The position numbers were made by a program, and so were the translations under genes. 64,000 nucleotides of DNA from an uncultured bacterium (GTDB lineage: Bacteria; Patescibacteriota; Patescibacteriia; UBA9570; XYC2-FULL-38-9): positions 113,066 through 177,065 of the forward strand of contig CALKUP010000002.1 of the NCBI GenBank assembly GCA_937996685.1, given 5' to 3'. The notes below the pieces were generated by a model. It was not told the DNA's origin and did not search any database. It saw only the letters and a list, made by a program, of their open reading frames with translations. Below, in pieces: positions 3,608-63,054 of this stretch (its first letter is position 1; the number at the start of each line of letters is the position of its first letter).

Positions 3608-3963
3608 TCAATAGTTTTCGATTTGCCATTAAAGGCTTTCGATATGCTTTTGTTCATGAGCAAAATTTCCGTATTCAAACGCTTGCGGCTATTGTGGTTT
3701 TTGCGCTTGCGTTTTTCTTTCATGTCAAACCGTGGGAAGTAGTCGCGTTGACTGGTATGGTCGTTGCGGTTCTTGTGCTGGAAATTGCGAATACAGTGAT
3801 TGAAAAATTTGTTGATTTATTAAAACCGCGAATGGAGCATTATTCTGGGGTGGTGAAGGATTTAATGGCAACAGCTGTCTTGTTGACCTCACTAGGTGCG
3901 ATCATTGTGGGCTCAACGATCTTCATTCCGTATATTGTTCACATGATTTCAGAAATGTGGTAA
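3583..3963 (+). CDS. dgkA: Diacylglycerol kinase / undecaprenol kinase family membrane protein
   Basis: About 126 aa, 3 TM helices, conserved E..ANTVIE..VD motif (LEIANTVIEKFVD). Overlaps the ybeY 3' end by 25 nt. Confidence 0.7.
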   Translation: MQHSVRTLINSFRFAIKGFRYAFVHEQNFRIQTLAAIVVFALAFFFHVKPWEVVALTGMVVAVLVLEIANTVIEKFVDLLKPRMEHYSGVVKDLMATAVLLTSLGAIIVGSTIFIPYIVHMISEMW

Positions 3964-3966
3964 AAT
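3938..3966 (+). promoter_or_regulatory. Sigma70-like promoter for ftsA: TTCACA-17-TAAAAT with TGG extension. ATG 8 nt downstream (near-leaderless)
   Basis: TTCACA 3938-3943, spacer 17 nt, TGGTAAAAT 3958-3966. ftsA ATG at 3975. Confidence 0.5.
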
Positions 3967-3974
3967 AATTGCAT

Positions 3975-5231
3975 ATGGCTCGAGAAGATATTATTACAGG
4001 ACTGGACATTGGATCAACCGCGATTCGTGTTGTTTGCAGTCAATTAAAAGAACAAACAGACGGGAGTGTTGCGCTGAGTATTATTGGCGCTGGTGAGGCT
4101 CCGGCTGAAGGGATCTCCAAAGGTGTGATTACGAGCATTGAAGATGCGGTTTCAAGCATTTCGGCTGCATTGGAAAAGTGTGAACGCATGACCGGTATCC
4201 CAATTGAAGAAGCGGTTGTGAGTATTAACGGGGCGCATGTTGTGGCTCAAGAAAGTCATGGCGTTGTCGCGGTCAGTAAACCAACTGGGGAAATTGAAGA
4301 AGATGATGTTGAGCGTGCAATGAATGCTGCACAAAGTGTTGCAACTCCACCAAACTACGAAATTTTACATGTGATTCCACGCGCTTTTTCTGTGGATGAT
4401 CAAGCAGGAATCAAAGATCCAATCGGTATGACCGGGATCAAGCTTGAGGTGGACACACAAATTATTTTAGGAATGACATCTCAAATTAAGAATGTCACGA
4501 AATCAGTCTATCGTACAGGCGTTGATATTTCTGACATGGTTGTTGAGGTGCTTGCTGCGAGTGAATCTGTGTTAACAAAACGACAAAAAGAACTTGGAGT
4601 TGTGTTGGTCAATATGGGTGGAGCAACGACAAGTATTATGGTATTTGAAGAAGGGGATGTCATCCATAGTAAAATTTTGCCAGTAGGATCTGGTCATATT
4701 ACAAACGATATCGCCATTGGATTGCGAACAACAGTTGATATTGCAGAAGAAGTGAAAAAACGATTCGGCACAGCGTTGCCAGAAACAGTGAATAAAAATG
4801 AAGAAATTGACCTCGCTGATATCGATCCACAAGAAGATGTAAAAGTATCAAAGAAAGAAGTGGCTGAAATTATTTCCGCTCGTTTAGAGGAGGTGTTTCA
4901 AATGATTCAAAAAGAACTTCGCACTATTGACCGTGATGCAAAATTGCCAGCAGGCATCGTCTTTACTGGTGGAGGAGCGTTGCTTCCTGGGCTCATTGAA
5001 ATGGCCAAAAATGACTTCCGAACCAGTGCGAGTATTGGTCTTCCAAAGCATGTTGTCTCTCCAATCGAAAAAGTGAATGACCCAACCTTTGCCACAGCTG
5101 TTGGTTTGGTTCTCTGGGCGCAGCATTTACAAGCGGTTCCTCAAGGAAAGCGTGGTGCTGTTGCGAATTTCAGCTCAGTTGCTGATGTAACTGGAAAAAT
5201 GGGGAAATGGTTTAAGTCGTTGATCCCATAG
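3975..5231 (+). CDS. ftsA: Cell division protein FtsA
   Basis: Actin-like ATPase. N-terminus ITGLDIGSTAIRVV, upstream of ftsZ. The ORF track begins at a TTG at 3969; the ATG at 3975 (MAREDII) is more likely. Confidence 0.9.
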   Translation: MAREDIITGLDIGSTAIRVVCSQLKEQTDGSVALSIIGAGEAPAEGISKGVITSIEDAVSSISAALEKCERMTGIPIEEAVVSINGAHVVAQESHGVVAVSKPTGEIEEDDVERAMNAAQSVATPPNYEILHVIPRAFSVDDQAGIKDPIGMTGIKLEVDTQIILGMTSQIKNVTKSVYRTGVDISDMVVEVLAASESVLTKRQKELGVVLVNMGGATTSIMVFEEGDVIHSKILPVGSGHITNDIAIGLRTTVDIAEEVKKRFGTALPETVNKNEEIDLADIDPQEDVKVSKKEVAEIISARLEEVFQMIQKELRTIDRDAKLPAGIVFTGGGALLPGLIEMAKNDFRTSASIGLPKHVVSPIEKVNDPTFATAVGLVLWAQHLQAVPQGKRGAVANFSSVADVTGKMGKWFKSLIP

Positions 5232-5333
5232 TGAACACATTATTTGTTCAGCATAGTCTTGCTTTTTGTTCAGAGTTCCTGTAGACTCTGAATTGTTTTA
5301 ACCTCTTGTATAAAGTATAAAAAATTCAAACCT

Positions 5334-6524: not shown

Positions 6525-6542
6525 TAATAGAAATGAAAACAA

Positions 6543-6567
6543 GCCGCTGTAACCAGCGGTTTTTTTC
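6543..6567 (+). terminator. Rho-independent terminator after ftsZ
   Basis: Hairpin ccgctg-taac-cagcgg followed by a T7 run. Confidence 0.6.
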
Positions 6568-6586
6568 TGTACGATATTTTGCTTTG

Positions 6587-6595
6587 TGGTATACT
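6587..6595 (+). promoter_or_regulatory. Extended -10 element TGGTATACT upstream of the sensor kinase gene
   Basis: TGnTATACT at 6587-6595. In-frame ATG at 6605, 9 nt downstream. Confidence 0.5.
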
Positions 6596-6604
6596 ATTGT
6601 TTGT

Positions 6605-8683
6605 ATGTCTCGGAGGAAAAAAAATAAAAACATATTTCACTATTTACAGATGCAGCCAACGATTGGAGAGTTGCTCTTTTTTTGTTTCCTGGTTGCATTG
6701 ACGAGTGCCTTTACATTATTCGAATTGCTTGAGCACATTCATTTTTTTACATCCATTGATTTATATCGTTTATCGATCGCTGTCGATGTCATGATTACTA
6801 TTGGGGTGTCGTCTATTTCGTTTGCACGATTTTTCGCGAAAAAGAATGATACGGTGTTGTTTATTGGTTTTGCATTTGTGAGTCACGGCATTATTGATGC
6901 GTTGCGTTTGCTTGCGATTAGTGATTATGGAATTCATCATTTCCGTGTCTCGCAGTACGCTTTGGTCCATTGGTCATGGCTCGCGTCAGAAACTGTCTGG
7001 GTCTCGTTGCTTGCGATGAGTGCAGTTGTCTGGTTTTTGCAAAAAAAATATGGAGAGCAAGCGCATGTACGGTGGGGAGTGTTGTCATTGGTGGTTGCGT
7101 TGTTGACGTTGTCCGCGACAATTTTCTTTTTTACAACGCCGGTGACGATTGATTTCTATCAACCGCTCGGTCCATTTTTGCGTCCATGGGAACTGATTCC
7201 TGGGCTCATTTCTCTGATTGCGCTCGTTTTATTTTTTATAAAAGGTGATTGGGAACACGATGCGTTTGATTTTGGTTTACTTATTGCGTTGTTATGTACA
7301 TCGTTGGGACATTTCTTTTTTGGTTCGCAATCGACCGCGATATTTGATCAACATTTTTATGCGGCGCAATTATTGACGCAAACCGGAATGCTGATCGTAG
7401 CTGTTGGGTTGTTTTATAGTATGACAACACTCTTTCAAGATGTTGAGTCAAAAGAGCTTCAGTTGGTTTCCCGGGTACATGATTTGAAGCGTGAAAAAGC
7501 AATGGATGATACATTTATTGAAAGTATTGGAGATGCGATTATTGTAACGGATAGTGATACCCGAATTACACGGGTAAACAAAGCATTTGAAGAAACAATG
7601 GGTTGGACTAAAAAAGAGGCGATTGGTCAGCCGGTGACAAAGGTATTGCCGATGTTTGATTTGCATAATGCTGCGATTCCGTATGAAAAGCGCCCACAAG
7701 CAAAAGCGTTATTTGCTGGTGAGCGAATTGAAACATCAATGGAATATACGTACCAAAGAAAGGACGGTTCCTTATTTTCGGTTGCGTCTACGGTGACTCC
7801 GGTGATTGTTGACGGAGATATTATCGGTGCAATTGAAGTGTTTCGAGATGTGTCAAAAGAAAAGATGATCGATGAGCAAAAGAGCACATTCGTGTCTGTT
7901 GCGTCACATCAACTGCGAACCCCGCTCACGACACTGAATTGGTACACGGAAATGTTGCTGTCTGGAGATGCCGGAAAAATTAATAAAAAACAGAAAGAAT
8001 TTTTATTAGAAATTTACCAAGGGAGTAAGCGCCTTGTTGTGTTGGTGAATGATTTATTGAATATTTCGCGCATTGAATCGGGCAGGCTGAAAATTCAACC
8101 GGTTGAAACGAGTATTCATTCGTTGATTAAAGAAACAGTCGCAGAAATCCGCCCGTTATTACGCGGTCGCTCAACAAGCGTGACTGTCGATATTCCAGCG
8201 CTTCAATTTACTGATGTTTTGATCGACCCGCTGATTTTACGTCAGGTGATTCATAATTTACTAACGAATGCTATTCGATATTCTTCGAAAGATACAAAAA
8301 GCGTGATTACTATTTCGGTGCAAAAAAAGCGTTTTGCGCTCACACGCAATAAAGCAGCGGAACTCAGACCAGGGAGTTATATTGTTATTGCTGTGAAAGA
8401 TCAGGGTATTGGTATTCCAAAGAACCAGCAAGATCGTATTTTTGAAAAGTTTTTTCGAGCAGACAATGCGCTGCATGCCGCCGCAGATGGGAGTGGTTTA
8501 GGTTTGTATTTTATTAAAATGATTATGCAAGAATCAGGCGGAGCGTTATGGTTTACCTCAAAAGAAAATCAAGGAAGTACCTTTTTTGTCGCTATCCCTG
8601 TTACTGGCATGAAAGCAAAGGTTGGAGATAAAGAAATATCAACAGTGGCTTCAACAGAATTGCTTTCAAAGGAGAAAAAATAG
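6605..8683 (+). CDS. Sensor histidine kinase with a polytopic N-terminal membrane sensor, PAS, HisKA and HATPase_c domains
   Basis: H-box FVSVASHQLRTPLTTL, G-box GSGLGLYFIK, about 8 predicted TM helices at the N-terminus. The ORF track start at 6533 lies inside the ftsZ terminator, so the ATG at 6605 (or 6649) is preferred. Confidence 0.8.
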   Translation: MSRRKKNKNIFHYLQMQPTIGELLFFCFLVALTSAFTLFELLEHIHFFTSIDLYRLSIAVDVMITIGVSSISFARFFAKKNDTVLFIGFAFVSHGIIDALRLLAISDYGIHHFRVSQYALVHWSWLASETVWVSLLAMSAVVWFLQKKYGEQAHVRWGVLSLVVALLTLSATIFFFTTPVTIDFYQPLGPFLRPWELIPGLISLIALVLFFIKGDWEHDAFDFGLLIALLCTSLGHFFFGSQSTAIFDQHFYAAQLLTQTGMLIVAVGLFYSMTTLFQDVESKELQLVSRVHDLKREKAMDDTFIESIGDAIIVTDSDTRITRVNKAFEETMGWTKKEAIGQPVTKVLPMFDLHNAAIPYEKRPQAKALFAGERIETSMEYTYQRKDGSLFSVASTVTPVIVDGDIIGAIEVFRDVSKEKMIDEQKSTFVSVASHQLRTPLTTLNWYTEMLLSGDAGKINKKQKEFLLEIYQGSKRLVVLVNDLLNISRIESGRLKIQPVETSIHSLIKETVAEIRPLLRGRSTSVTVDIPALQFTDVLIDPLILRQVIHNLLTNAIRYSSKDTKSVITISVQKKRFALTRNKAAELRPGSYIVIAVKDQGIGIPKNQQDRIFEKFFRADNALHAAADGSGLGLYFIKMIMQESGGALWFTSKENQGSTFFVAIPVTGMKAKVGDKEISTVASTELLSKEKK

Positions 8684-16569: not shown

Positions 16570-16602
16570 GCCAATAATGTGTATTAATAAAATGATTTTT
16601 GT

Positions 16603-17046
16603 ATGAGGAAACAGAACCAAGGTTTTACATTATTAGAAATTTTGCTTGTTATCGCAGCGATCGGCATTTTGGCTGGTATTGTGATTGTTGCGATTAACCC
16701 AACAAAGCAACTCGCTGATGCGCGGAATGCGGCTCGTAAGTCAGCAGTCAATACTGTGCTGAACGCTGTATATCAATATGCAGTTGATAATGACGGTGCT
16801 CTGCCAGGAAGTATTCCAGAAACAGCGACAGAAATTTGTGCAACCGGCGCTGGAAGTTGTACAGGATTGGTGAATTTGTCTGCATTGACGACAAATGAAC
16901 GATATTTAACAGCAATCCCAGAAGATCCAAGTGGAACATGTGCGGCAAACGGTGCGTGTTATGAAATTCTGCAATCTGCAAACGGCCGTGTAACAGTCTC
17001 TGCTCCGGATGCTGAAAACGGTGCTGATATTTCAGTGACTCGTTAA
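16603..17046 (+). CDS. Type IV major pilin (PilA / ComGC / GspG-like)
   Basis: MRKQNQG|FTLLEILLVIAAIGILAGI canonical class III signal. 147 aa with two Cys pairs (C..C ; C..C) for C-terminal disulfide loops. Confidence 0.8.
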   Translation: MRKQNQGFTLLEILLVIAAIGILAGIVIVAINPTKQLADARNAARKSAVNTVLNAVYQYAVDNDGALPGSIPETATEICATGAGSCTGLVNLSALTTNERYLTAIPEDPSGTCAANGACYEILQSANGRVTVSAPDAENGADISVTR

Positions 17047-17628: not shown

Positions 17629-17637
17629 TGGTATACT
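17629..17637 (+). promoter_or_regulatory. Extended -10 TGGTATACT; nrdR ATG 6 nt downstream (leaderless)
   Basis: TGGTATACT 17629-17637. ATG 17644. Confidence 0.5.
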
Positions 17638-17643
17638 GTTCAT

Positions 17644-18117
17644 ATGAAGTGTCCAAGTTGCCAAAAACCTGATACTCGTGTGATTGACACACGAATGATT
17701 GAAGACGGAAGTTCCATTCGCCGCCGCCGCCAATGTGAGTTTTGTCATTTTCGTTTTACAACAGCTGAAGAGATTGAAATTTTAACACTCCACGTGATGA
17801 AGTCTGATGGGAGACGAGAAGCGTATGATCGCGAAAAGTTGCTCTATAGCATGAAGCTCCCATTGAGTAAACGACCGATTACAGCCGCGCAAATTAAAAA
17901 AACATTTCATCAGATTGAACAAGAAGTGCAATCACAAGCCAAACACGACAGCATCACAACGGCAAAGATTGGAGACATTGTTACAAAGTATTTGAAAAAA
18001 TTGGATAAAGTTGCATATATCCGGTATGCTTCTGTGTATCATGCCTTTGATGATTTACACGCCTTTGTCGAAGAGGTGGAAAAAATTTCTCGTAAGAAAA
18101 AAGCTAAGAAAAAATAA
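17644..18117 (+). CDS. nrdR: Transcriptional repressor NrdR (zinc ribbon plus ATP-cone)
   Basis: MKCPSCQ...CEFCHFRFTT zinc ribbon followed by an ATP-cone. Located upstream of the RNR gene. Confidence 0.9.
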   Translation: MKCPSCQKPDTRVIDTRMIEDGSSIRRRRQCEFCHFRFTTAEEIEILTLHVMKSDGRREAYDREKLLYSMKLPLSKRPITAAQIKKTFHQIEQEVQSQAKHDSITTAKIGDIVTKYLKKLDKVAYIRYASVYHAFDDLHAFVEEVEKISRKKKAKKK

Positions 18118-22810: not shown

Positions 22811-23260
22811 ATGGAAGTAACACTTGATACGATTTTTGGTGAGGTATTGGAAGAATATCCAGAAACAGAAGAAGTGTTAAAAAATTACATGGGTGAGGCA
22901 TATTGTTTAACCTGCCCTGGAAAAATGTTTGATACCATCGGCAATGGTGTATTGTTGCATGGACTGTCAGATCAAATGACGCAATGGTTAATGGAAGATT
23001 TGCAACAAGTGGTTGATGCCTATGAAAACGGAACACCATTTCCGCCGCTGCGAAAGATTGATGCTGCTGGAATTGCTGAGTGGGATGGAAATTTTCAACC
23101 AGCCATTGGAACAACTCCTGCTACAGAAGTAGTGGAATCGGATGAAGCGGAAATTGATACCTCAGGAGTTGATATTGATCATATGTTTGCAGCAGCGATT
23201 AAGGAATTGGAAGCGCAGGAGAAAGAAGATGCTGCTCGTTCGACTCAAGAGCAGGCATAG
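22811..23260 (+). CDS. DUF1858-like (hybrid-cluster-protein-associated redox disulfide) domain protein with an acidic C-terminus
   Basis: N-terminus TIFGEVLEEYPETEEVLKNYMGEAYCLTCPG...LHGL matches the DUF1858 pattern (yPe..evf...G..C..Cp). Confidence 0.45.
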   Translation: MEVTLDTIFGEVLEEYPETEEVLKNYMGEAYCLTCPGKMFDTIGNGVLLHGLSDQMTQWLMEDLQQVVDAYENGTPFPPLRKIDAAGIAEWDGNFQPAIGTTPATEVVESDEAEIDTSGVDIDHMFAAAIKELEAQEKEDAARSTQEQA

Positions 23261-23262
23261 GA

Positions 23263-23268
23263 TATACT
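23263..23268 (+). promoter_or_regulatory. -10 TATACT 7 nt upstream of the prfB ATG (leaderless architecture)
   Basis: TATACT 23263-23268. ATG 23276. Confidence 0.4.
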
Positions 23269-23275
23269 CCATTTC

Positions 23276-26103: not shown

Positions 26104-26310
26104 TCAGCCTACTCTGACGAAACCGAATCTCGTGTCATACCCATATCCAACAAGCATGTTTGATGAGGTGTGGTGGACTTGAGGAGCGAGAGGGGGTTCT
26201 TCTTTGCTGTTGAGTTGCCTGAGCGCCTCCTCGATGCGCTCAGGTGATACTCCAGCCGCTTCAACCTCTTTGATGAGGGTGATCAATCTTCCCAGCTGTG
26301 CCTTCTTCAT
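26104..26310 (-). CDS. Small hypothetical protein (68 aa) with GC3-rich codon usage
   Basis: GGAG 9 nt upstream of the ATG. Helical N-terminus. Codon usage is unlike neighbouring genes. Could be spurious. Confidence 0.3.
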   Translation of the reverse strand: MKKAQLGRLITLIKEVEAAGVSPERIEEALRQLNSKEEPPLAPQVHHTSSNMLVGYGYDTRFGFVRVG

Positions 26311-26435
26311 CCCGTTTTCTCCTGCTGCTGAATAGCAACAATAAATAGTATTCTATTTTATGGATAAGTCAAGAGTGGTAAAAAGAGTCATTTAACAGCC
26401 TCTCTAACTCTGTCTTTATGTGCTGTGTCCGATAG

Positions 26436-30642: not shown

Positions 30643-30651
30643 TGGTATACT
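30643..30651 (+). promoter_or_regulatory. Extended -10 TGGTATACT; ndh ATG 6 nt downstream (leaderless)
   Basis: TGGTATACT 30643-30651. ATG 30658. The ORF track start at 30640 lies inside the -10. Confidence 0.5.
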
Positions 30652-30657
30652 GCTGAC

Positions 30658-34396: not shown

Positions 34397-34420
34397 TGCA
34401 TTCATTGCTACACTCACTTC

Positions 34421-41197: not shown

Positions 41198-41219
41198 GCT
41201 TTCGAATATAGTTAGAGTC

Positions 41220-44265: not shown

Positions 44266-44274
44266 TGATATACT
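44266..44274 (+). promoter_or_regulatory. Extended -10 TGATATACT upstream of pyrG
   Basis: TGaTATACT 44266-44274. pyrG ATG 44309. Confidence 0.4.
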
Positions 44275-44308
44275 CATTTTTTGAATTAATTTCCTCTTAT
44301 TTTTTTGT

Positions 44309-46002: not shown

Positions 46003-46033
46003 AAAGACGCTCGATCGGTGAGCGTCTTTTTTA
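46003..46033. terminator. Bidirectional rho-independent terminator between pyrG (+) and rpmA (-)
   Basis: A-run, agacgctc-gatcggt-gagcgtct, T-run. Confidence 0.6.
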
Positions 46034-46043
46034 TTGTGTGTAT

Positions 46044-46325
46044 TTATTGTTTTTCAACAACGGATACAGTTTGGATGGTTTTGAGAAGTCCTGTGAAACG
46101 TTTTACTTTTTTCTTGGTGAATTTTACAACGCCAGGAACGATTGCGTAAATTGTGTCATCTTCGCCAATGCGTGTGCCAACTCCTGGACGGAATTTGCTT
46201 CCACGTTGTCGAATGAGGATGTTTCCGGATTCAACGGTCTGACCACCGTATTTTTTAACACCGAGACGCTTTGCTTTCGAATCGCGTCCCAGATTGGTCG
46301 AGCCACCGGCCTTGGTATGTGCCAT
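46044..46325 (-). CDS. rpmA: 50S ribosomal protein L27
   Basis: [29 protein letters not shown] canonical L27 N-terminus. Confidence 0.9.
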
Positions 46326-46399
46326 AGGTTACAGATTAGGATAAATATCAATGACTTTTTTCAATAATTTGAAGTCCGCAATAGCATACCATAGAGTGA

Positions 46400-46429
46400 T
46401 TGACGTGTCAATTTCTTTCACGCTATACT
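46400..46429 (+). promoter_or_regulatory. Sigma70-like promoter TTGACG-18-TATACT; ATG at 46436 is 6 nt downstream (leaderless)
   Basis: TTGACG 46400-46405, TATACT 46424-46429. A divergent TGGTATGCT for rpmA lies on the minus strand at 46383-46391. Confidence 0.45.
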
Positions 46430-46435
46430 ATATGC

Positions 46436-46822
46436 ATGTCTATTGAAGCCCGAAAAGGGATTGAGCCCACTCGATTTTTTGAACGCGTCCGTTTTTTGCC
46501 CGCACCATTTTGGATTGGTTTTCTGTTGGTATTCATTATTAATGCCGCGCAGTGGGGGTACATTTTGTGGAAGTTTCCGCCAATTGAAGGGGTGGTTTTT
46601 TTACATTACACAATCTACTTTGGCGTTGATATCACCGGACAATGGTGGAATATACTCCTGATTCCAGGAGCTGGACTGTTATTTTTTGTTCTGAATACTT
46701 TAGTTGTATTCTGGTCGTATTTTCGGTATCCGTTGATTGCCTGGGTGTCCGTGGTCTTTTCAGGGATTATGAATGCGCTTATATTACTTGGCCTCTATTT
46801 TATTATTCACGTAAACGCATAA
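46436..46822 (+). CDS. Hypothetical polytopic membrane protein
   Basis: 4 TM helices. The ORF track start at 46400 is a TTG inside the -35, so the ATG at 46436 is preferred. Confidence 0.45.
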   Translation: MSIEARKGIEPTRFFERVRFLPAPFWIGFLLVFIINAAQWGYILWKFPPIEGVVFLHYTIYFGVDITGQWWNILLIPGAGLLFFVLNTLVVFWSYFRYPLIAWVSVVFSGIMNALILLGLYFIIHVNA

Positions 46823-47897: not shown

Positions 47898-47915
47898 AGA
47901 GTGTCAAATAGACTA

Positions 47916-48023
47916 TTGCGCAAGAAACGGCAGGATACTAAAGAGTACCATTGATACAATTGCAATCAGCGCGAGAACAAGGTATACTTTTTCCTGCCAG
48001 GATTTTTTTCGTTTACTCATATA
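47916..48023 (-). CDS. Unannotated small membrane peptide (35 aa: MSKRKKSWQEKVYLVLALIAIVSMVLFSILPFLAQ)
   Basis: Below the 60-aa ORF cutoff. -10 TATACT (minus strand, + coordinates 48031-48036) sits 7 nt before the ATG, the same leaderless architecture as other genes here. Basic N-terminus plus one TM helix. Confidence 0.3.
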
Positions 48024-48058
48024 GGAGAGTATACAAAAACCCAGTGTCTTTCGCAAGC

Positions 48059-51887: not shown

Positions 51888-51981
51888 ATAGATGAGTGCG
51901 CTTGAAGTAGGATATCAAATTCTCAAATTCTCGTCAATAAAATCCTTGTATTTTTACAAGACGGCTGTATTATAGAGATAT

Positions 51982-53289
51982 ATGAATGATTTATCAGCGG
52001 CCCGCGCATTTATTGGTGATTCCCTTGGCTTTCACATTATCTTTGCTTTATTCGGTGTTGGTTTGCCGCTTGCCATTTTTTGTATTGAATGGTGGAGTAT
52101 TCGCCGAAAAAGCGCTGAACTGCTGTCTCTTGCTCATTTTTTGACTCGTATCATGTCATTGTTTGTGATTGTGGGAGTTGTTTCAGGAACGCTGATTGCA
52201 ATTCAAATGAGTGTTATTTGGTCAGGACTTGTTGATTTTGGGGCGCCGATTATCGGAATTCCATTTGCGCTTGAAGGGTATGCGTTTTTGATTGAAGCTG
52301 TGTTTTTGGGTTTTTATGTTTCAACATGGAAGCGGTATGCCGGGTATCATCATCTACTGCTGCTTGTTCCAGTGATTCTTGGTGCTGGCATGTCAGCGGT
52401 ATTTATTACGCTAGCAAATGCTTGGATGAATAATCCGCAAGGCTTTGAAATGGTAAATGGAGTCATGACAAATATCCATCCATGGAAAGGACTTCTTACC
52501 GCAACGGCATTTTTTGAAATTGCACACTCTCTAATTTCATATTACATGACAACATTTTTTGCAATTGCTGGTGTGTGTACATTCCTTATTACCAAAGGTG
52601 GCTCACAGCAGCGGGCACGTGCTCTACGGCTTGTTGTGAATCGTTTCATGTTATTTGGTTTTGTGTGTATTATTTTGCTTGCAGGTCTCGGACATGCGTC
52701 AATGCAACATCTTGCACAAGCAGAGCCGCGTAAATTCGCCGCAATTCAAATGCAGCCAGAAACATTGGATCATGCGCCGTATGTGATTGGAGGTCACCTT
52801 GATTCAAATGAGGAGCATTTGGAAGGAGGACTTCGTATTCCAAATGGATTAAGTATCCTTGCGGATAACGATGCGGATACTGTTGTTCGTGGACTTCGAG
52901 AATATCCGCGCGCTGATTGGCCGCTGTTGATTGTCAATCGTCTCTTTGAAGTAAAGATGGTGCTTGTTGGTTTTTTGACGCTGATCCCATTGCTGTATCT
53001 TGCGTTGTATCGTCGTGCACAAAAAATGTCGCTTGATAGTCGTATCGCGGGTTGGCTTGTACTTTGTTCGGGTCCGCTGTCCGTTCTTCTTGTAGAGCTC
53101 GGCTGGATGATTACAGAGCTTGGTAGGCAGCCATATGCGGTTGCAGGATATTTGCGCGTTGAACAAGCGTTTACTGCAAGCGTCTCGGTGATGGAGTGGG
53201 GATTTATTTTCCCTGTAGCTTTTGTCTTGCTGTTTGTTGTGTCGTTTGGCGTTGCTTTTCAAATGATTCGTAAAGAAGGACCACTATGA
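51982..53289 (+). CDS. cydA: Cytochrome bd-type quinol oxidase subunit I
   Basis: Polytopic. C-terminal Q-loop/GRQPY motif (ELGRQPYAVAGYLRVEQAF). N-terminal HIIFALFGVGLP region typical of CydA. Confidence 0.75.
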   Translation: MNDLSAARAFIGDSLGFHIIFALFGVGLPLAIFCIEWWSIRRKSAELLSLAHFLTRIMSLFVIVGVVSGTLIAIQMSVIWSGLVDFGAPIIGIPFALEGYAFLIEAVFLGFYVSTWKRYAGYHHLLLLVPVILGAGMSAVFITLANAWMNNPQGFEMVNGVMTNIHPWKGLLTATAFFEIAHSLISYYMTTFFAIAGVCTFLITKGGSQQRARALRLVVNRFMLFGFVCIILLAGLGHASMQHLAQAEPRKFAAIQMQPETLDHAPYVIGGHLDSNEEHLEGGLRIPNGLSILADNDADTVVRGLREYPRADWPLLIVNRLFEVKMVLVGFLTLIPLLYLALYRRAQKMSLDSRIAGWLVLCSGPLSVLLVELGWMITELGRQPYAVAGYLRVEQAFTASVSVMEWGFIFPVAFVLLFVVSFGVAFQMIRKEGPL

Positions 53290-53810: not shown

Positions 53811-55183
53811 AGAATTTGCGTTTCTTCAATGTCTGTTGTGCGGCCTTCGAAGATGACTTCAAGTGCGCGATTCGTCCCTTGATGTGGCGCGTTTGCAAAG
53901 CCGCTGTAGGCAGCTTCTGCGAGCCAACCAGAATGCACCCAATCGAGTAGCCAGTCTCCAGCGTTGCTTGGGGCTAATTGATCAATGCCAGCACCGGTTG
54001 AAAGGAGCCATTGTCGATTAAAGTCTTCTTGTGATCCAACGGGTTCTGTCATAATGATAGGAAGACCGAGTCCGGCGTAAAACGACAACTCGCTTGGTTT
54101 TGTCCATAGTACATCAGTTTCGTTGAGGACATGGTTGAATTTTTCAAAGTAATGATATTTGTTTGCGTCGTACACAATATTCACAAGATGGCCGTGGTCA
54201 GCGAGGCCTAGTTCGCGGCAGAGGTTTTCAAAATAGCGAAACACATCATCTCGTGATCCGGCAATCAGATTGAGCTTAATGCGACCTTCAAGAATGTGCG
54301 GCTGCAAACTGCGCAGAATGGTGCTCGCAACTTCACGCTGTGCTCCAGCACCACCAACAGCAAACGTGACAGTCAGTGGATGGTGATCTTCGATCACGCA
54401 ATATTGAGTGCCAAGATATTGCTCCAATGTTTTCATGTACTTTTCACGCCATTTGTTTTCTGGATCAAGAGCACAAAGCCTCCGGCCAACAGACGTCTTG
54501 AGAACCTCAAAGTCATCCCCAATGTTTTCAGCAGGAAGCGGGAAGCCAGTGGTGATAATGTTTTTTTCTGGAACACCGTAGCGAATCAAACGCTCTTTCA
54601 CACGAAAGGTCGGAGCGAGGTATTGAATACGTGTTGTTTCAGCATTCAGCGGTGCCCATGCGCGACTGACATCGGTGTCTGTGCAGATACAGTAAATATC
54701 GCCTTGATATCCGTGCTCTTCAGCAAAAAAGGCAATCGTGAAAAATGATGTAATCAGTGGTAGTGGTTTTTCGTTCAGCGTGTCGATCAAGTGTTTACCC
54801 CAACCGCGTTTAATCAATCCGTAGATTTGCTTGAGCTGAAAGGACGGATCATGCTCAGTGCGTTTTGGGTAGAACGGTTGAATCCGTTGCATGTAGTCCA
54901 TGATGCCAAACGCAGCCGTCCCAAGCAGTGGGATGCGTTTCATCCGAGAAATTTTTTCGTAAAATGATTGGCCGGATGTCCAGAGTTTTTGATCGCGCTT
55001 CGGAATGCCTTGGTAGTGATTCGCAACAATAATAGTACTGCCGGTTTCGTTCCAGCTATCTGGAGCCACAGCAACATGCGCGAGTGGATAGACAGCGCGT
55101 TGATGGCCATAGCCCATGTCGACGGTAACGACGTAGGCTTCTTGTGTGGTGGGTGTTTTGGGATTTTGGGGTGTGGTTTCCAT
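53807..55183 (-). CDS. Putative GT-B fold glycosyltransferase (MGDG-synthase / UgtP-like)
   Basis: 458 aa. N-terminal MGYGHQRA motif and overall two-Rossmann-domain length. Assignment uncertain. Confidence 0.35.
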   Translation of the reverse strand: METTPQNPKTPTTQEAYVVTVDMGYGHQRAVYPLAHVAVAPDSWNETGSTIIVANHYQGIPKRDQKLWTSGQSFYEKISRMKRIPLLGTAAFGIMDYMQRIQPFYPKRTEHDPSFQLKQIYGLIKRGWGKHLIDTLNEKPLPLITSFFTIAFFAEEHGYQGDIYCICTDTDVSRAWAPLNAETTRIQYLAPTFRVKERLIRYGVPEKNIITTGFPLPAENIGDDFEVLKTSVGRRLCALDPENKWREKYMKTLEQYLGTQYCVIEDHHPLTVTFAVGGAGAQREVASTILRSLQPHILEGRIKLNLIAGSRDDVFRYFENLCRELGLADHGHLVNIVYDANKYHYFEKFNHVLNETDVLWTKPSELSFYAGLGLPIIMTEPVGSQEDFNRQWLLSTGAGIDQLAPSNAGDWLLDWVHSGWLAEAAYSGFANAPHQGTNRALEVIFEGRTTDIEETQIL

Positions 55184-55199
55184 ATCCCAATAGTATACC

Positions 55200-56339
55200 T
55201 TATTTTCGAGTCAAATGCGTTACCAGCTCAACATGGGGTGTGTGTGGAAACATGTCGATCGCTCGCATGAATGAAACGGTGTAGTGTTTTTTCAATTGAA
55301 CCATTTCACGGGCAAAGTTTTTTGCATTGCACGAAACGTAGATAATCTCAGGTGGAAGGATGCGCAGAACATCAGCAAGAGCTGAATCGTGCATGCCGCT
55401 GCGTGGTGGGTCAAGGATCACGCAATCCGCGTTATATCCGCCCCAGTCAAAGTCTTCTGTTTTTTGGGCGGTGAGTTCAATACGGTCAGTTCCAATGCCG
55501 TTGAGTGTCGCATTTCGCCGCGCATCTTCAATGGCTTCTGGAACAATTTCAACCCCGATCACTGTTGTGTCTGGAAGTTTCATTGCGGCGCTTATTCCAA
55601 AAAATCCAGAACCACAATACAGGTCAAGGAGGGTTTTTGGTGCTACTGCTGCGATGCGTTCCAAAACTGTTTGCTGCAAGACACTCGCGCCATGCGGATT
55701 CGTTTGAAAAAAGGCATTTGGAGAAATTGCAAATTGTACGCCATTGATTTCTTCGTGAATGACGCCATCGCCAGAAATCACACGGAGTTCATCGCCGACG
55801 CTCACATCTGAAATGGTGTGGTTAATGCTCCAGATAACAGTTGTGGCGCCGCTGCTGCTCGCGAGTGTTTCCAGTGCCGTTTGTGTCGCAGCTTCTTCTG
55901 CAGGGTCTGCGGGCGCGCTTGTGACAATCGTAATCATGGTTTCGCCTTTGAGCGTGGAGCGAATCACAGCATAGCGGAGCAGTCCGGTGTGTGCCTTGCG
56001 ATCAAAAAATGTTAACTCGGAGGTCTTCGTCCAATCTCGGACACTGTGAAACAAGCGTTCAATATCTTCACTCGCTAAAAAGCAGGTGTGGTCGTCGATC
56101 ACGCGCCACCACTTTCCTTTTTGCCGCAAACCAACACGACCTTCAAAATCGATGACAAAATCCATTCGGTTGCGGAAGTGTTCTGTTACGGGTGAGGGGA
56201 GGATTTCCTCGCATTTCAAATCCAGCTCTTTCAAGGCGAATGATCCGTTAATGTCTGCAAGTTTTTGGGTGAGTTGTTTGTCATACGGGATATGTGACCA
56301 ACCACATGATCCGCAGAGCTCTTTGTTTGGGCAATTCAT
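55200..56339 (-). CDS. 23S rRNA (uracil-C5)-methyltransferase RlmD/RumA family (TRAM plus SAM-dependent methyltransferase)
   Basis: N-terminal Cys cluster CPNKELCGSCGW. SAM motif LLDLYCGSGFFG. C-terminal catalytic Cys in DPPRSG...VSCN. Confidence 0.85.
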   Translation of the reverse strand: MNCPNKELCGSCGWSHIPYDKQLTQKLADINGSFALKELDLKCEEILPSPVTEHFRNRMDFVIDFEGRVGLRQKGKWWRVIDDHTCFLASEDIERLFHSVRDWTKTSELTFFDRKAHTGLLRYAVIRSTLKGETMITIVTSAPADPAEEAATQTALETLASSSGATTVIWSINHTISDVSVGDELRVISGDGVIHEEINGVQFAISPNAFFQTNPHGASVLQQTVLERIAAVAPKTLLDLYCGSGFFGISAAMKLPDTTVIGVEIVPEAIEDARRNATLNGIGTDRIELTAQKTEDFDWGGYNADCVILDPPRSGMHDSALADVLRILPPEIIYVSCNAKNFAREMVQLKKHYTVSFMRAIDMFPHTPHVELVTHLTRK

Positions 56340-56411
56340 GCCTATACTGTAGCAAATGAGTTATAAAAACGCTATTTTTTGCGTATGTTACACATTGCTG
56401 GGGATAAATAA

Positions 56412-56440
56412 TTGACAAAATCACAAAAAAGTTGCATTAT
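56412..56440 (+). promoter_or_regulatory. Near-consensus sigma70 promoter TTGACA-17-CATTAT; ATG 6 nt downstream (leaderless)
   Basis: TTGACA 56412-56417, 17-nt spacer, CATTAT 56435-56440. ATG 56447. Confidence 0.5.
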
Positions 56441-56446
56441 GTGCCC

Positions 56447-56524
56447 ATGTTTAAAGGAATGATTGCAGTCAGTATTGCTCTCTTCTTGTTCATCATGGTG
56501 AGCAGCACAATGTCCATTGCATAG
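56447..56524 (+). CDS. Unannotated 25-aa hydrophobic peptide (MFKGMIAVSIALFLFIMVSSTMSIA) immediately upstream of ppnK
   Basis: Leaderless start right after a consensus promoter. Stop TAG 2 nt before the ppnK ATG (TAGGCATG). Single TM helix. Confidence 0.3.
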   Translation: MFKGMIAVSIALFLFIMVSSTMSIA

Positions 56525-56526
56525 GC

Positions 56527-57318
56527 ATGAAACGTGTCTATGTGGTCGGAATGGTGCGCGACGCATTGATTGACCGTATTAAGAAGGGATATCCAGGTCT
56601 TCAGGTAGTGAATGACCGTTTTTTGGTTGACGGAGATGTTGGGAAGGCGGATTGCGATGTGGTGATTTGTTACGGAGGCGATGGAACATTGTTGTATGGA
56701 GAAGAACATATCCCGGAGGTTCCAAAAATGATGCTGCGGAATACGATGCTGTGTGATTCCTGTGTTGCGCGGACAGAGCGCGACATGCTTGCAGCGCTGG
56801 CTGATGATCAGTATACGATTCAAGAGTACGATAAATTAGAAGCACGTGGTGCGCGGACACATACAGCGTTATATGATGTGATGATTGGTCACGCGCGTGT
56901 GAACATGAGCGTGCGTCTGCGTTTTGCTGTGAATGGAAAACCGCATGTAGAAGAGGTTGTTGGTGATGGCATTGTGATCAGTACAGCACTTGGTTCAACA
57001 GGGTATTATCAAAGTATTACGCGGAGTAATTTTAGTGGCGGGATTGGTATTGCATTTAATAACTCCGTCAATACAATGAGTAATGTTGTTGTTGATGCAG
57101 ATTCTGTTATTGATGTTGACATTACACGCGGGCCAGCAGTGCTCGCAACAGACAATACAGAAGATACAGAAATCGTGGAGACGGGAAATGCAATTCAGAT
57201 TCGACGATCGCAGCACACTGGAAAATTACTGTCATTTGCAGGAGAGCTTGAGCAATACAATTTTGCGACACACCGTTTTCCAGCGGGAATTTGTCAGCTC
57301 TGTCAATCACACATATGA
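56527..57318 (+). CDS. ppnK: NAD(+) kinase
   Basis: GGDGT motif (ICYGGDGTLL). DGIVISTALGSTGYYQS NAD-kinase C-terminal motif. Confidence 0.85.
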   Translation: MKRVYVVGMVRDALIDRIKKGYPGLQVVNDRFLVDGDVGKADCDVVICYGGDGTLLYGEEHIPEVPKMMLRNTMLCDSCVARTERDMLAALADDQYTIQEYDKLEARGARTHTALYDVMIGHARVNMSVRLRFAVNGKPHVEEVVGDGIVISTALGSTGYYQSITRSNFSGGIGIAFNNSVNTMSNVVVDADSVIDVDITRGPAVLATDNTEDTEIVETGNAIQIRRSQHTGKLLSFAGELEQYNFATHRFPAGICQLCQSHI

Positions 57319-59636: not shown

Positions 59637-59657
59637 CAACTGCCGACAACGCAGGGG

Positions 59658-59686
59658 AAACCGTGGACAAGATCCGCGGTTTTTTG
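59658..59686 (+). terminator. Rho-independent terminator after the small gene
   Basis: aaaccgtgg-acaagat-ccgcggttt then TTTTT. Confidence 0.55.
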
Positions 59687-59699
59687 TACACTGCCGGGA

Positions 59700-60134
59700 A
59701 TGAAAGAATTACATCGTGTTCGCGGGATTGTGCGCCGTGGGAATCAACTTGGGAGAACGCTCGGATATCCGACGGCAAATATGATATTGCATCAAGATAT
59801 TCGTGATGGTGTGTATGTTAGTCTCACGTCTATTGATCGTTGTCCTGCCGCGCTGCAAAAAAAATATCGCTCGCAGATGGTTGAGTGGAATGGAAAGATG
59901 TGGCTTCGAAGCCTGACGTTTATTGGAGCAGCGGAAACATTTGGTGGAACAAAGCGTAAAATTGAAACTTTTATTTTAGACTTTAATGGAAATCTCTATA
60001 CACATTGGCTGACTGTTTCGTTGTTGTCATATGTGCGCGGTTCAAAAAAATTTAAGACTGTGGATGATTTGCTTGTTGCGATGAACAATGATACAACCAC
60101 GGCTCGGGCATACTTTGAAAAATTTGATTTATAA
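59700..60134 (+). CDS. Monofunctional riboflavin kinase (RibF C-terminal domain homolog)
   Basis: GRTLGYPTANM flavokinase motif. 144 aa. No FAD-synthetase domain. Confidence 0.8.
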   Translation: MKELHRVRGIVRRGNQLGRTLGYPTANMILHQDIRDGVYVSLTSIDRCPAALQKKYRSQMVEWNGKMWLRSLTFIGAAETFGGTKRKIETFILDFNGNLYTHWLTVSLLSYVRGSKKFKTVDDLLVAMNNDTTTARAYFEKFDL

Positions 60135-60742: not shown

Positions 60743-62278
60743 TTACACGTTTTTTGGTCCGTGAATTGGAAGCGTAACAAAGAATGTTGTGCCTTTATTT
60801 TCTTCGCTTTCAAATCGAATGGTTCCGCCGTGGCGTTTCACAATTTGAGAAACCATAAATAACCCAAGTCCAGATCCGTCTGCTTGAACAGTTTGAATAT
60901 TCGACGCTCGGAAAAATTTTGAAAAAATCCGTTCTTGCTCTTCTTTTGGAATTCCGTATCCAGTATCAGAAACAGTCATCGTGACAGTGTCTGCATCATG
61001 AGAAAAGTGCACGCTTACTGTCCCGTCTTTTGGTGTATATTTAATTGCATTGTCGATTAAATTATGGACGACCAGTGAAATTTTTTCTGTATCCATATTT
61101 AATTGCGGCAATGGCTCTTTCGGTGTTTCGATATTCACCGTGACGCTATTTTTTTCTGCTGCTTGAAATAAGTCTTTTACCGCATCAGTAAACAATGGAA
61201 GGAGGTCGCTATTTTGAAAGTTGAATGCAAAGCCTTCGGTTTCAAGGCGAGTGACATCAAGCAGTCCGTTGATTAAGGTGATCATACGATCAACGTTTTC
61301 CATACTGAGTTGCAGTTGCTTGCGTGCTTCGTCGTCGATTTTCCCAAAGTCACCGTCAAGAGTCATTTGCACAACCCATTTAATGCCGCTCATTGGTGTG
61401 CGGAGTTGATGCGCTGCGATACTTAAGAATTCCGTTTTTTGTTTATCGAGTAATTTGGTTTTTTCTAATTCTTGTTGCAATGCTGCCTGCGCTTCTTGGA
61501 TGTGCGTTGTCATAGCATTGAAACTTTCTGACAACACGCCGATTTCGTCATTGCCTTCAACAGGAACGGTTTGTGAAAAATCACCTGAGCCAATCCGTTC
61601 TGCTGCGGTTGTGAGGCGTTCAATTGGTTTGGCGACAGACCGGCGAATAAATGAAAACAATAACAACATTGTGACGATTGCAAGCAAGATCGCCAAGATC
61701 ACCATAATGATCGTGCGTTGGAATTGGTCGATGGTTTGTTGTTGGACTGCTTTGCTATCGGCTTGAATTTTGGTTGAGATTTTTGTGTCTAAAAAGTCGA
61801 TGAAGATATCTCGATTATTGGAAACGGCTGTTAATTTTTCTTGCAACGTTTTTGTATCTGCGCCAGATTCGTATGCTGCAACGAGGTCGTTCAAGCTTTC
61901 TGTGGTGTTGTTGATGTACTCTTGAAATGAGCTGGTGAATTCAAAATCGTCAGATGTTTTTGAGAGTAAAAATAAATCAACTTGAGCGCGCAGCGCATCT
62001 TGGAGTTTTTCTTGATAGAGGAGCTTGCTGTCTTGGTTGCCAGTTTGGATGTAATCGTACGCAGCGGCAATGGAAATATTTAAACTATCTTTTAAGGTCC
62101 CGGTGCTGACAATCTTTGGAACAAATTGATTTGCAATCACGTCGGTCTTTGAACGAATGTCGTCCGTGGCGGTAATAGTGAGTACGCCGAGGTTGATCAT
62201 TAAGATAAGAATAACAATAAAGATCAATGAGATCTTGTATTGAATCTTGAGGTTTCGAATCAATGTAAGGATATTCAT
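60743..62278 (-). CDS. Sensor histidine kinase (TM, HAMP, HisKA, HATPase_c)
   Basis: H-box FLSIAAHQLRTPMSGI, HAMP, G2 box GSGLGLFMV. The ORF track start at 62629 runs into the neighbouring gene, so the ATG at 62278 (MNILTLIRNLKIQYK, TM) is preferred. Confidence 0.8.
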   Translation of the reverse strand: MNILTLIRNLKIQYKISLIFIVILILMINLGVLTITATDDIRSKTDVIANQFVPKIVSTGTLKDSLNISIAAAYDYIQTGNQDSKLLYQEKLQDALRAQVDLFLLSKTSDDFEFTSSFQEYINNTTESLNDLVAAYESGADTKTLQEKLTAVSNNRDIFIDFLDTKISTKIQADSKAVQQQTIDQFQRTIIMVILAILLAIVTMLLLFSFIRRSVAKPIERLTTAAERIGSGDFSQTVPVEGNDEIGVLSESFNAMTTHIQEAQAALQQELEKTKLLDKQKTEFLSIAAHQLRTPMSGIKWVVQMTLDGDFGKIDDEARKQLQLSMENVDRMITLINGLLDVTRLETEGFAFNFQNSDLLPLFTDAVKDLFQAAEKNSVTVNIETPKEPLPQLNMDTEKISLVVHNLIDNAIKYTPKDGTVSVHFSHDADTVTMTVSDTGYGIPKEEQERIFSKFFRASNIQTVQADGSGLGLFMVSQIVKRHGGTIRFESEENKGTTFFVTLPIHGPKNV

Positions 62279-62298
62279 TGAATGAATTGTATCATATA

Positions 62299-62307
62299 TG
62301 ATATAAT
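62299..62307 (+). promoter_or_regulatory. Consensus extended -10 TGATATAAT; ATG 6 nt downstream (leaderless)
   Basis: TGaTATAAT 62299-62307. ATG 62314. Confidence 0.5.
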
Positions 62308-62313
62308 TGTTCC

Positions 62314-63054
62314 ATGAATCAAGGAGACCAAAATCAAACCCCAGCCGATTCTTTGGCGCAGCCGTTGCCAGGAATGGAATTTCCCGCATCAATGCCAGAA
62401 AATCAGGCAACTGCTCTGCAGCAACCGGTTCAACCGACGGCGATGCCAGTGCAACCACAAATGGCGATGCAAGAACCAGTGATGCAATCCGCAGCGCATG
62501 TTCCAGGAGAAGTTGCTCCGGCAAATGTGCCAGGACAAGAGCCTGCTGGTTTTGGCGCGTTCGGCTCTCTCCCAGAACAGCCTGTTGCGACGGGTCCGTT
62601 GCCGGGGGCGATACCAACTCAAGCAGCAAGCCCAGAGCTTATGCAATCTGCGGCATATCAAGGTTCTGCAACTCCGATGCTGATGACACCAGAGGATGAA
62701 GCTGATTTATTTGGACGTGAAAAATTAAGCGTTGGTTCAAAAATGCTGATTGTTGCAGCAATTGTTGCGGCGCTCGGGAGTGTTGTGGCAGTTGGTTTAT
62801 GGCTCTACTCGACATATTTTAAAGTGCCGAACACTGGCTCGACTCCGAACGGTGTTCCGGTGGTCAATAGCGTGAACAAAGGAGCGGCGTCGACTGCGAA
62901 TACAGATGTGGATGGAGATGGATTGACAGAGGCAGATGAAAAGAAGTACGGTAGTGATCCTAAAAAAGCAGACACAGACGGAGATGGATTTGCCGATGGT
63001 GTTGAAGTCAAAAATGGCTACAGCCCAACTGGTTCCGGCCGACTGGTTCAATAA
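62314..63054 (+). CDS. Membrane-anchored Pro/Gln-rich protein with C-terminal TSP3-like calcium-binding repeats (third paralog)
   Basis: TM MLIVAAIVAALGSVVAVGLWLY. DVDGDGLTEADE and DTDGDGFADGVEV repeats. C-terminus ...GYSPTGSG as in 1057..1878. Confidence 0.6.
   Translation: MNQGDQNQTPADSLAQPLPGMEFPASMPENQATALQQPVQPTAMPVQPQMAMQEPVMQSAAHVPGEVAPANVPGQEPAGFGAFGSLPEQPVATGPLPGAIPTQAASPELMQSAAYQGSATPMLMTPEDEADLFGREKLSVGSKMLIVAAIVAALGSVVAVGLWLYSTYFKVPNTGSTPNGVPVVNSVNKGAASTANTDVDGDGLTEADEKKYGSDPKKADTDGDGFADGVEVKNGYSPTGSGRLVQ

Follow-up and report, generated by a model that had tools for sequence, protein, structure and literature searches.

How are start codons recognised in a bacterium whose messages carry hardly any Shine-Dalgarno (SD) sequence? 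The question is raised by the window studied here, a whole stretch of 64,000 nucleotides (64 kb) of contig CALKUP010000002.1, in which -10 promoter hexamers lie only a few nucleotides before the ATG of many genes. From this arrangement the initial annotation had proposed that leaderless translation, on messages that begin at or next to the A of the start codon, is the dominant mode of initiation. The reading that we consider quite probable is that of a genome without SD pairing, in which first cistrons are leaderless in about half of the transcription units and SD-free leaders or junctions serve elsewhere. The window has a G+C content of 44% and is densely packed, with ~66 genes nearly all on the + strand. 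The closest relatives of its FtsZ, NrdR and MurA are found in metagenome-assembled genomes of Patescibacteria (Candidate Phyla Radiation, CPR), the nearest named ones being Candidatus Kerfeldbacteria (identity up to 67% for FtsZ, 62% for NrdR and 58-59% for MurA), and the source genome is a member of the Patescibacteria, near Kerfeldbacteria. CPR bacteria are known for unusually small ribosomes.

A -10 hexamer was defined as a match of at least 5/6 to TATAAT or TATACT, with A at its second and T at its sixth position, at a gap of 5-9 nt to an ATG. Two sets of starts were used, a mechanical one in which the first ATG of every long open reading frame (ORF) is taken as the start, and a refined one corrected by terminators, Pfam N-termini, homologue lengths and newly recognised genes. 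Under the first-ATG rule, the hexamer precedes 19/63 starts compared to 54/2213 (2.4%) other ATGs (Fisher, 7.6e-15), with a peak at gaps of 5-8 nt and nothing at 10-14 nt. The comparison with shuffled controls that had been suggested was run on the 64-kb window, and shuffling of the upstream 40 nt in this set gave 4.2 ± 2.0 and never more than 13 in 5000 shuffles. For the refined starts, the hexamer is present in 25/66 compared to 48/2210 (2.2%) other ATGs (odds ratio 27, p = 2e-22), and the gaps are 5 nt in two cases, 6 nt in eight, 7 nt in six, 8 nt in six and 9 nt in three, with none at 10-14 nt. Beyond these, two sites, 56339(-) and 56447, combine a weaker hexamer with a perfect partner element. 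Counting independently of any start assignment, 48 TATA[AC]T are found in the window and seven of them have an ATG 6-9 nt further on that opens an ORF of 128-692 aa; one of the seven, 55197(-), had gone unnoticed in the initial annotation. The arrangement is thus confirmed, and it is stronger than the initial annotation had stated. Indeed, the motifs and ATGs quoted for ftsA, the sensor kinase, nrdR, prfB, ndh, the membrane protein, the ORF upstream of ppnK and the TSP3 protein were all recovered where they had been placed; for a small ORF on the minus strand TATACT and ATG exist as described, with coordinates off by 3 nt (48033..48028 and 48020 are the real ones). At least eight further cases had been missed: 55183(-), 34421, 41220, 41195(-), 51982, 56339(-), 59700 and 62278(-). 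Furthermore, 23/25 candidates carry a pyrimidine at -1, and the first 40 nt fold more weakly (-3.25 vs -5.5 kcal/mol, p = 0.005), an observation consistent with leaderless mRNAs without being specific to them.

A/T-rich DNA together with TAA stop codons could yield TAnnnT near starts by chance, the best-looking cases having then been chosen by eye. Upstream regions are ~70% A/T, and the stop codon is TAA in 21/23 tight gene junctions, often giving the last T of the hexamer. Nevertheless, the peak is reproduced neither by mononucleotide shuffles nor by stop-preserving shuffles, nor at the flanking gaps of 0-4 and 10-14 nt, and chance is already refuted for the strong class of sites. Given as well the co-occurring promoter elements and the conservation described below, we regard this explanation as hardly credible.

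The gap between hexamer and ATG is also that of an SD sequence; hence features proper to promoters only were compared between 26 candidate and 701 background hexamers. TG at -15/-14 (TGn) is present in 8/26 candidates compared to 7.6% of the background (p = 7e-4), and a -35 box with at least a 4/6 match at 16-18 nt in 11/26 compared to 14.7% (p = 9e-4). One or the other is found in 16/26 candidates against 21% of the background (p = 1.4e-5), and in 13/17 outside tight junctions (12 nt or less). The two are partly complementary, as in E. coli: at 5/8 TGn sites the -35 match does not exceed 3/6, and several sites without TGn carry TTGACT, TTGACG, TTGACA, TCGACT or TGGACA at 17-18 nt. TG is hence enriched and makes up for a poor -35 box, as in sigma-70 extended -10 promoters, and the view of the hexamers as sigma-70-type, often extended -10 boxes is borne out; from their spacing, the predicted +1 coincides with the A of the ATG or lies no more than 1-3 nt from it. 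A promoter of this type is also found upstream of tRNA-Gln, 21 nt from the mature 5' end, and 21-65 nt before the leadered genes glmS, pyrG, pgk, ftsE, 59304, 37510 and bL27, and is therefore a transcription signal and not a translation signal.

These features bear directly on the proposal that, as in group B of GeneMarkS-2, ribosomes recognise leadered or polycistronic mRNAs through TAnnnT as a non-canonical signal, which either pairs with a 16S rRNA of altered 3' tail or forms an A/U-rich site for ribosomal protein S1. Apart from the SD-like spacing, such a role would agree with the altered 16S 3' ends of some Parcubacteria (PMC9297842), with the -1 pyrimidine and the A/T-rich, G-poor context common to all gene classes, and with the enrichment of hexamers before tight-junction genes hardly able to own a promoter (9/23 compared to 2.5 ± 1.5 in stop-preserving shuffles, P = 6e-4). 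However, TGn or a -35 box at 16-18 nt, found in 13/17 starts outside these junctions, is meaningless to a ribosome, and a ribosomal signal is not expected before a tRNA gene, 21-65 nt before other genes or directly behind terminators. The motif is also missing from most internal genes (24), and the hexamer at the RNase H junction is not kept in the related locus L089. Group B genomes carry one motif before first and internal genes; here, weak hexamers occur in 9/23 junctions and none in 24 internal genes. We consider a ribosomal role of the hexamer very unlikely.

The geometry of four sites further supports promoters without leaders. Terminator, -10 box and ATG follow each other within 45-65 nt at 6541-6605 and 59655-59700, and in two divergent pairs just 24 and 35 nt separate the start codons and the -10 boxes overlap; neither the two terminator sites nor the two divergent pairs leave space for both a promoter and a leader. 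At the first site (6541..6607, +), the ftsZ terminator (6541-6571) is followed by TGGTATACT (6587-6595), 9 nt and the ATG at 6605 of a MASE3/PAS histidine kinase of 692 aa, and the ATG at 6533 is spurious because it lies inside this intrinsic terminator. At the second (59655..59702, +), a terminator hairpin of -20.6 kcal/mol (59655-59686) abuts TACACT (59687-59692), which has a -35 TGGACA at 17 nt and lies 7 nt before the ATG (59700) of riboflavin kinase. The first divergent pair (41184..41222) consists of MurA on the + strand, with TTGACT-17-TATAGT (41207-41212), 7 nt and ATG 41220, and a PEGA-domain protein on the - strand, with TATATT (41210..41205), 9 nt and an ATG whose A is at 41195; 24 nt separate the start codons. 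In the second pair (62276..62316), start codons 35 nt apart, a histidine kinase of 511 aa (MNILTL..., -) has TGATACAAT (62294..62286) 7 nt before its ATG (A at 62278) and the TSP3-repeat protein (+) has TGATATAAT (62299-62307) 6 nt before ATG 62314.

The same sites decide largely against a further possibility, that the -10 boxes are real but minor, translation proceeding mostly from longer upstream transcripts and leaderless mRNAs being a by-product of a compact genome. Such a situation would fit ftsA, prfB, ndh, iPGM and 55183, each of which follows a co-directional gene at a distance of only 11-26 nt without an intervening terminator, and SD-independent internal initiation is needed anyway for at least 24 internal genes. 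Yet it fails for the terminator-flanked starts 6605 and 59700 and for the divergent pairs 41195/41220 and 62278/62314, and the -10 position is kept in relatives while the adjoining bases change. We hold it to be improbable.

Five of the candidate arrangements are kept in relatives despite diverged intervening sequence. For nrdR, locus L082 (NrdR 82% identical) shows TATACT-6-ATG and another discriminator, in L083 (68%) TATACT comes after a terminator and 9 nt before the ATG, and in L085 (Kerfeldbacteria RIFOXYA2_FULL_38_24, 62%) the gene is operon-internal. Locus L089 (MurA 67% identical) is syntenic with 39.7-53.3 kb of the window and keeps the divergent PEGA/MurA genes, 25 nt apart, with TATATT-9-ATG and TTGACT-17-TATAGT-8-ATG; its membrane protein gene has TTGACG, TATACT, 7 nt and ATG, and its cydA TACACT-6-ATG. 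The -10 at 6-9 nt is thus kept for MurA, PEGA, membrane protein and CydA with changed discriminator bases in between, and overall 6/15 starts of L089 have a -10 at 5-9 nt; pyrG, bL27, divIC and ftsE stay leadered there. In L090 (61%) the PEGA/MurA pair is 30 nt apart, and with -10 boxes 25-27 nt away from the ATGs both genes have short leaders. There (9970-10001), each -10 overlaps the start codon of the opposite gene and the two ~20-nt leaders are mutually antisense. In the case of ftsA, TGTTATAAT is found 26-29 nt upstream in L083 and L085 compared to TGGTAAAAT 8 nt upstream in the window. From these comparisons it follows that the promoters are conserved and that leader length drifts from 0 to ~30 nt within the clade. 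When 77 diverse CPR ftsZ loci were pooled, only a modest peak was seen at 6-9 nt, and ftsA is mostly leadered in relatives, with the leaderless position in 15/66; hence the trait is not CPR-wide.

SD use was assessed by the duplex energy with ACCUCCUUA, at a threshold of -4.5 kcal/mol or lower. Pairing was found before 2/66 starts compared to 10.5% of other ATGs, and G makes up 9-16% of positions -13 to -4. None of the leaderless candidates reaches the threshold, and physically there is no room for an SD, as the initial annotation had claimed for its genes; by the same duplex test neither the internal genes nor bL27, bL9, pyrG and glmS are preceded by one. Exceptions were seen at 53286 (AAGGA) and 26310(-). 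SD rarity had been illustrated by a single GGAGG gene at 17145; the rarity itself holds, and that gene is ambiguous, with an in-frame ATG at 17133. Nor is it the only obvious case, the better example being the AGGAG of the small ORF at 26310(-). Relatives are also SD-poor (0/17 in L085, 1/15 in L089), and SD use is generally low across the 77 more distant CPR loci. Furthermore, RF2 (23276-24364; SPF at 198, GGQ at 243) is encoded by a single ORF without the SD-dependent +1 frameshift site. The RF2 gene of L085 (14569-15657) likewise does without the programmed +1 frameshift, for which an internal SD-like element is required.

What most genes share instead is a pyrimidine at -1, found in 57/66 window genes (T in 44) and in 15/15 of L089. 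Leaderless, leadered and operon-internal genes show this preference to the same degree, and in internal genes it cannot be one of transcription start. T(-1) amounts to 0.5-0.9 in many CPR loci (L001-L077) compared to 0.1-0.44 in three Firmicutes controls. A possible reason is extended pairing of U(-1) with A37 of the initiator tRNA. A is not preferred at -3 (T 42%, A 20%).

Taken together, housekeeping promoters would consist of a strong -10 (consensus TGGTATACT), often TGn-extended or else accompanied by a -35 box TTGACn spaced at 16-18 nt. Roughly half of the transcription units have this -10 at 6-9 nt before the ATG, and RNA polymerase would start at or within 1-3 nt of its A, in a context of pyrimidine at -1 and A at +1. 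By analogy with other bacteria (PMC10568206; GeneMarkS-2), the leaderless mRNA would be bound directly via its 5'-terminal AUG, probably by 70S ribosomes. The remaining first cistrons would have short (~15-60 nt) A/U-rich leaders without SD, and operon-internal cistrons would be reached by SD-independent reinitiation, as suggested by their junctions of -25 to +12 nt from the preceding stop codon.

As to extent, 17 starts are well supported (3975, 6605, 17644, 23276, 30658, 34421, 41195-, 41220, 46436, 48020-, 51982, 55183-, 56339-, 56447, 59700, 62278- and 62314), i.e. ~26% of 66 genes and roughly half of ~31 transcription units, so that calling leaderless translation the dominant mode was an overstatement. 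The share of genes with a -10 in leaderless position is ~26-40%, and judging from the sequence, leaderless initiation probably serves about a quarter of genes and half of transcription units. It cannot serve the at least 24 operon-internal genes or the ~9 short-leadered SD-less ones. A more radical version would be a CPR lineage fully without SD and anti-SD, with a 16S 3' end lacking CCUCC, mitochondrion-like initiation, mostly leaderless units, other cistrons reached by reinitiation at U(-1)AUG and some internal genes carrying weak embedded leaderless promoters; we put it forward as a tentative idea that we rather doubt. No rRNA, and hence no 16S 3' end, was found when looked for in the window and loci L001-L081.

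Several points weigh against the picture of widespread leaderless initiation. The sample is one 64-kb window. The motif, its spacing and enrichment, the promoter co-features, the geometry, the conservation and the SD absence are seen directly, and we infer every transcription start from the -10 to +1 distance and the Y(-1)A(+1) context, as we do the ribosome-binding mode and reinitiation. At a gap of 9 nt (6605, 41195, 16603) a leader of 1-3 nt is as likely as none. The promoters of prfB, ndh, iPGM and 55183 are embedded in upstream genes, and read-through polycistronic transcripts may coexist. Nine hits lie in tight junctions without TGn/-35 and are possibly not promoters. A generic -35/-10 scan gave 23 vs 36.9 ± 5.6, 43 vs 31.6 ± 6.4 and 51 vs 37.1 ± 7.0 in shuffles, and as a whole is not clearly above them (~2 standard deviations at most); it was used only to confirm individual -35 partners. 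Finally, a canonical AGGAG, the one clear SD of the window, precedes the small ORF at 26310(-).

Leaderless genes are by common acceptance recognised by a -10 box 6-8 nt before the start (PMC6028130, PMC3160421). Such boxes characterise the TA-led genomes, group C of GeneMarkS-2 (Actinobacteria, Deinococcus-Thermus), where a Pribnow box lies 6-8 nt before first cistrons (PMC3160421, PMC6028130). In the window likewise, TANNNT is localised ~6-8 nt before starts above background, with the same spacing, ATG at the predicted 5' end and a similar share. Published leaderless shares are 19-46% of genes, with 36-46% in Deinococcus-Thermus (PMC3160421), and 25-50% of operons are leaderless in group C (PMC6028130); the share in the window is comparable with the highest of these values. 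However, group C genomes are mostly high in GC, have a minimal TAnnnT and use SD-type ribosome-binding sites (RBS) in their other genes, whereas the window has 44% GC, full TATA[AC]T often with TGn, and SD before 2/66 starts, its remaining genes carrying no such RBS. The architecture hence matches group C in every tested feature save the SD-less remaining genes.

The combination of leaderless and SD-less genes is known from Mollicutes, which share a reduced genome, low to medium GC and mostly SD-independent initiation; in Mycoplasma pneumoniae, 8.1% of genes have an SD and 16% of transcripts are leaderless-like (PMC10568206; 10.1101/2022.07.25.500264). They differ in belonging to another phylum, in the canonical anti-SD retained by M. 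pneumoniae and in an apparent leaderless share that is higher in the window. Bacteroidota (group B, PMC6028130) also lack SD and have an A/T-rich, G-poor region before starts, internal genes included. In contrast to the window, their mRNAs are leadered and the motif stands before all genes; here it has promoter features, is absent from most internal genes and comes with no A preference at -3. Within the same superphylum, the 16S anti-SD motif is reported to be missing from about half of Parcubacteria (PMC9297842), in a study that covers rRNA and ribosomal proteins and not mRNA architecture. SD-less mRNAs are what such ribosomes would require; the present genome retains bL9 and bL27, and the comparison is made from the mRNA side alone. 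Full-text literature searches for leaderless or Shine-Dalgarno in connection with Patescibacteria, CPR, Saccharibacteria or Parcubacteria yielded no earlier description; leaderless gene organisation is thus known from other bacteria, and for CPR we found none described in the searchable literature.

How mRNAs are recognised in CPR lacking the anti-SD is likewise undescribed in that literature, and the window offers a concrete mRNA-side answer for one lineage. Its main interest lies in this counterpart of anti-SD loss and in CPR gene calling. Starts will be misplaced by gene-calling software that relies on an RBS; for instance, the mechanical ORF list makes the histidine kinase at 62278 too long by 117 codons. 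The suspicion that several ORF starts were over-extended was well founded: 3969 moves to 3975, 6533 to 6605, 30640 to 30658, 41184 to 41220, 46400 to 46436 and 62629 to 62278, and the starts used here match public gene calls for NrdR and MurA (P0001, P0121), both recorded on a 241-kb contig. An identical 3-kb piece is also present in ENA assembly ERZ650239. The products of 57903, 60140 and 62314, with the starts used here, are absent from the public gene-call index, in which NrdR and MurA are present; public pipelines probably chose other starts for these three in an SD-less genome. Furthermore, promoters for genetic tools in these organisms could be read directly from sequence (consensus TGGTATACT), and leaders that shrink from ~20-30 nt to zero between related genomes make a useful system for the origin of leaderless genes.

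Regarding the other individual candidates, the ftsA start (3938..3977, +) shows TTCACA-17-(TGG)TAAAAT (3958-3966), 8 nt and ATG 3975; it lies in a tight junction and was nevertheless kept among the 17, as both TGn and -35 are present. In nrdR (17629..17646, +), TGGTATACT is followed by 6 nt and ATG 17644. The Pfam profile positions 1-42 align to residues 1-42, the zinc ribbon begins at residue 1, the public call is identical, and an in-frame stop 15 nt upstream leaves no alternative start. The promoter of prfB (RF2; 23240..23278, +), TCGACT-17-TATACT (23263-23268) with 7 nt to ATG 23276, lies inside the 3' end of the preceding gene (15-nt gap). The NDH-2 type oxidoreductase ndh (30643..30660, +) has TGGTATACT, 6 nt and ATG 30658, and iPGM (34406..34423, +) the extended -10 TGCTACACT, 6 nt and ATG 34421. 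In cydA (cytochrome bd subunit I; 51968..51984, +) TATTAT lies 8 nt before ATG 51982. A DUF6938 protein of 458 aa (55181..55197, -) has TATACT (55197..55192), 8 nt and an ATG with A at 55183, and a tRNA U5-methyltransferase-like gene (56337..56354, -) has TGCTACAGT (56354..56346), 6 nt and an ATG with A at 56339. The pilin gene (16588..16605, +) is a weak candidate, with TAAAAT, 9 nt and ATG 16603; an alternative TGGTATATT 33 nt upstream would leave a short leader. For NrdR, Ndh, MurA, CydA and riboflavin kinase, the start is settled by in-frame stops, the N-termini of Pfam matches and public gene calls. Alignment to the Pfam profile begins at profile position 1-4 in Ndh, MurA, CydA, riboflavin kinase and bL27, and MurA homologues have 419-427 aa compared to 421 aa here, the public call being 41220.

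Three small ORFs deserve mention. The minus-strand one (47913..48056) encodes a 35-aa membrane peptide (MSKRKKSWQEKVYLVLALIAIVSMVLFSILPFLAQ) with a basic N-terminus and one hydrophobic helix, behind TTGCGA-17-TATACT (48033..48028), 7 nt and an ATG with A at 48020. In L089 (10505-10612, -) 27/35 aa are conserved, and of 23 nt changes 14 fall at codon position 3 and one at position 2; the ORF, next to divIC (47913-48020, -), is a real small gene that had not been annotated. A 25-aa hydrophobic ORF (MFKGMIAVSIALFLFIMVSSTMSIA; 56412..56529, +) has TTGACA-17-CATTAT (56435-56440), 6 nt and ATG 56447. Its TAG ends 2 nt ahead of the ATG (56527) of ppnK, and NAD kinase may be translated only via reinitiation after this peptide. 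The SD-bearing ORF of 68 aa (MKKAQLGRLITLIKEVEAAG...; 26104..26372, -) has TTGACT-16-TACTAT, a ~30-nt leader, AGGAG 8 nt before ATG 26310 and a terminator; it matches no Pfam family and could be foreign DNA.

Hexamers overlapping the upstream stop codon form an ambiguous class, exemplified by the -10-like sequence 5-9 nt before the start at 1043..1059 (+); other tight-junction hexamers lie at 1871, 15585, 22799, 25551, 36047, 39735, 50629 and 57891. Only 3/9 of the junction hits have TGn or -35, ftsA included in the count. As promoters these hexamers were rejected as unproven: they are enriched, but TGn/-35 are lacking and the one at 39735 is not conserved in L089.

Further genes in the window, by Pfam, include ftsA, ftsZ, murA and ftsE/X for cell division and envelope, two sensor kinases and a type IV pilus cluster, nrdR, a class II-type ribonucleotide reductase, pyrG and RF2, and glmS, pgk, eno and iPGM of sugar metabolism, besides the ribosomal proteins bL9 and bL27 and the respiratory cydA and NDH-2. 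Rfam and ARAGORN gave two tRNAs only. This CPR genome combines an NDH-2-type oxidoreductase (30658-31887) with cytochrome bd subunit I (51982-53810); the ORF at the cydB position has only 174 aa and no Pfam match, and a metagenome scan with Ndh as query gave only 29%-identical relatives. ATG is the apparent start codon of all 66 genes.

The 128-aa membrane protein gene (46400..46438, +), a leaderless candidate with TTGACG-18-TATACT (46424-46429), 6 nt and ATG 46436, diverges from the leadered bL27 gene (46325..46044, within 46044..46411, -), which has TTGACA-17-(TG)GTATGCT (46411..46383) and a ~50-nt leader without SD. The -35 box of bL27 overlaps that of the gene at 46436, in the palindrome TTGACGTGTCAA. 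The bL27 gene is hidden beneath a spurious + strand ORF (46038) and shares a 17-bp bidirectional terminator (45997-46035) with pyrG. At least nine genes have short SD-less leaders (glmS, pyrG, pgk, ftsE, bL27, divIC, ftsZ, 59304 and 37510), with promoters at 26459 for glmS (ATG 26491), 31840 for pgk (31884), 49931 for ftsE (49960), 59277 for 59304 and 37436 for 37510. In the last case, a leader of 65 nt, which contains two hairpins and has no Rfam match, separates the consensus TGGTATACT from a NUDIX hydrolase gene (37436-37510). For pyrG (44266..44311, +) the promoter TGATATACT lies 34 nt before ATG 44309. The first ~18 nt of its leader (CATTTTTTGAATTAAT) are common to the window (44266-44309) and L089 (~6863-6905), a conservation that suggests a regulatory leader.

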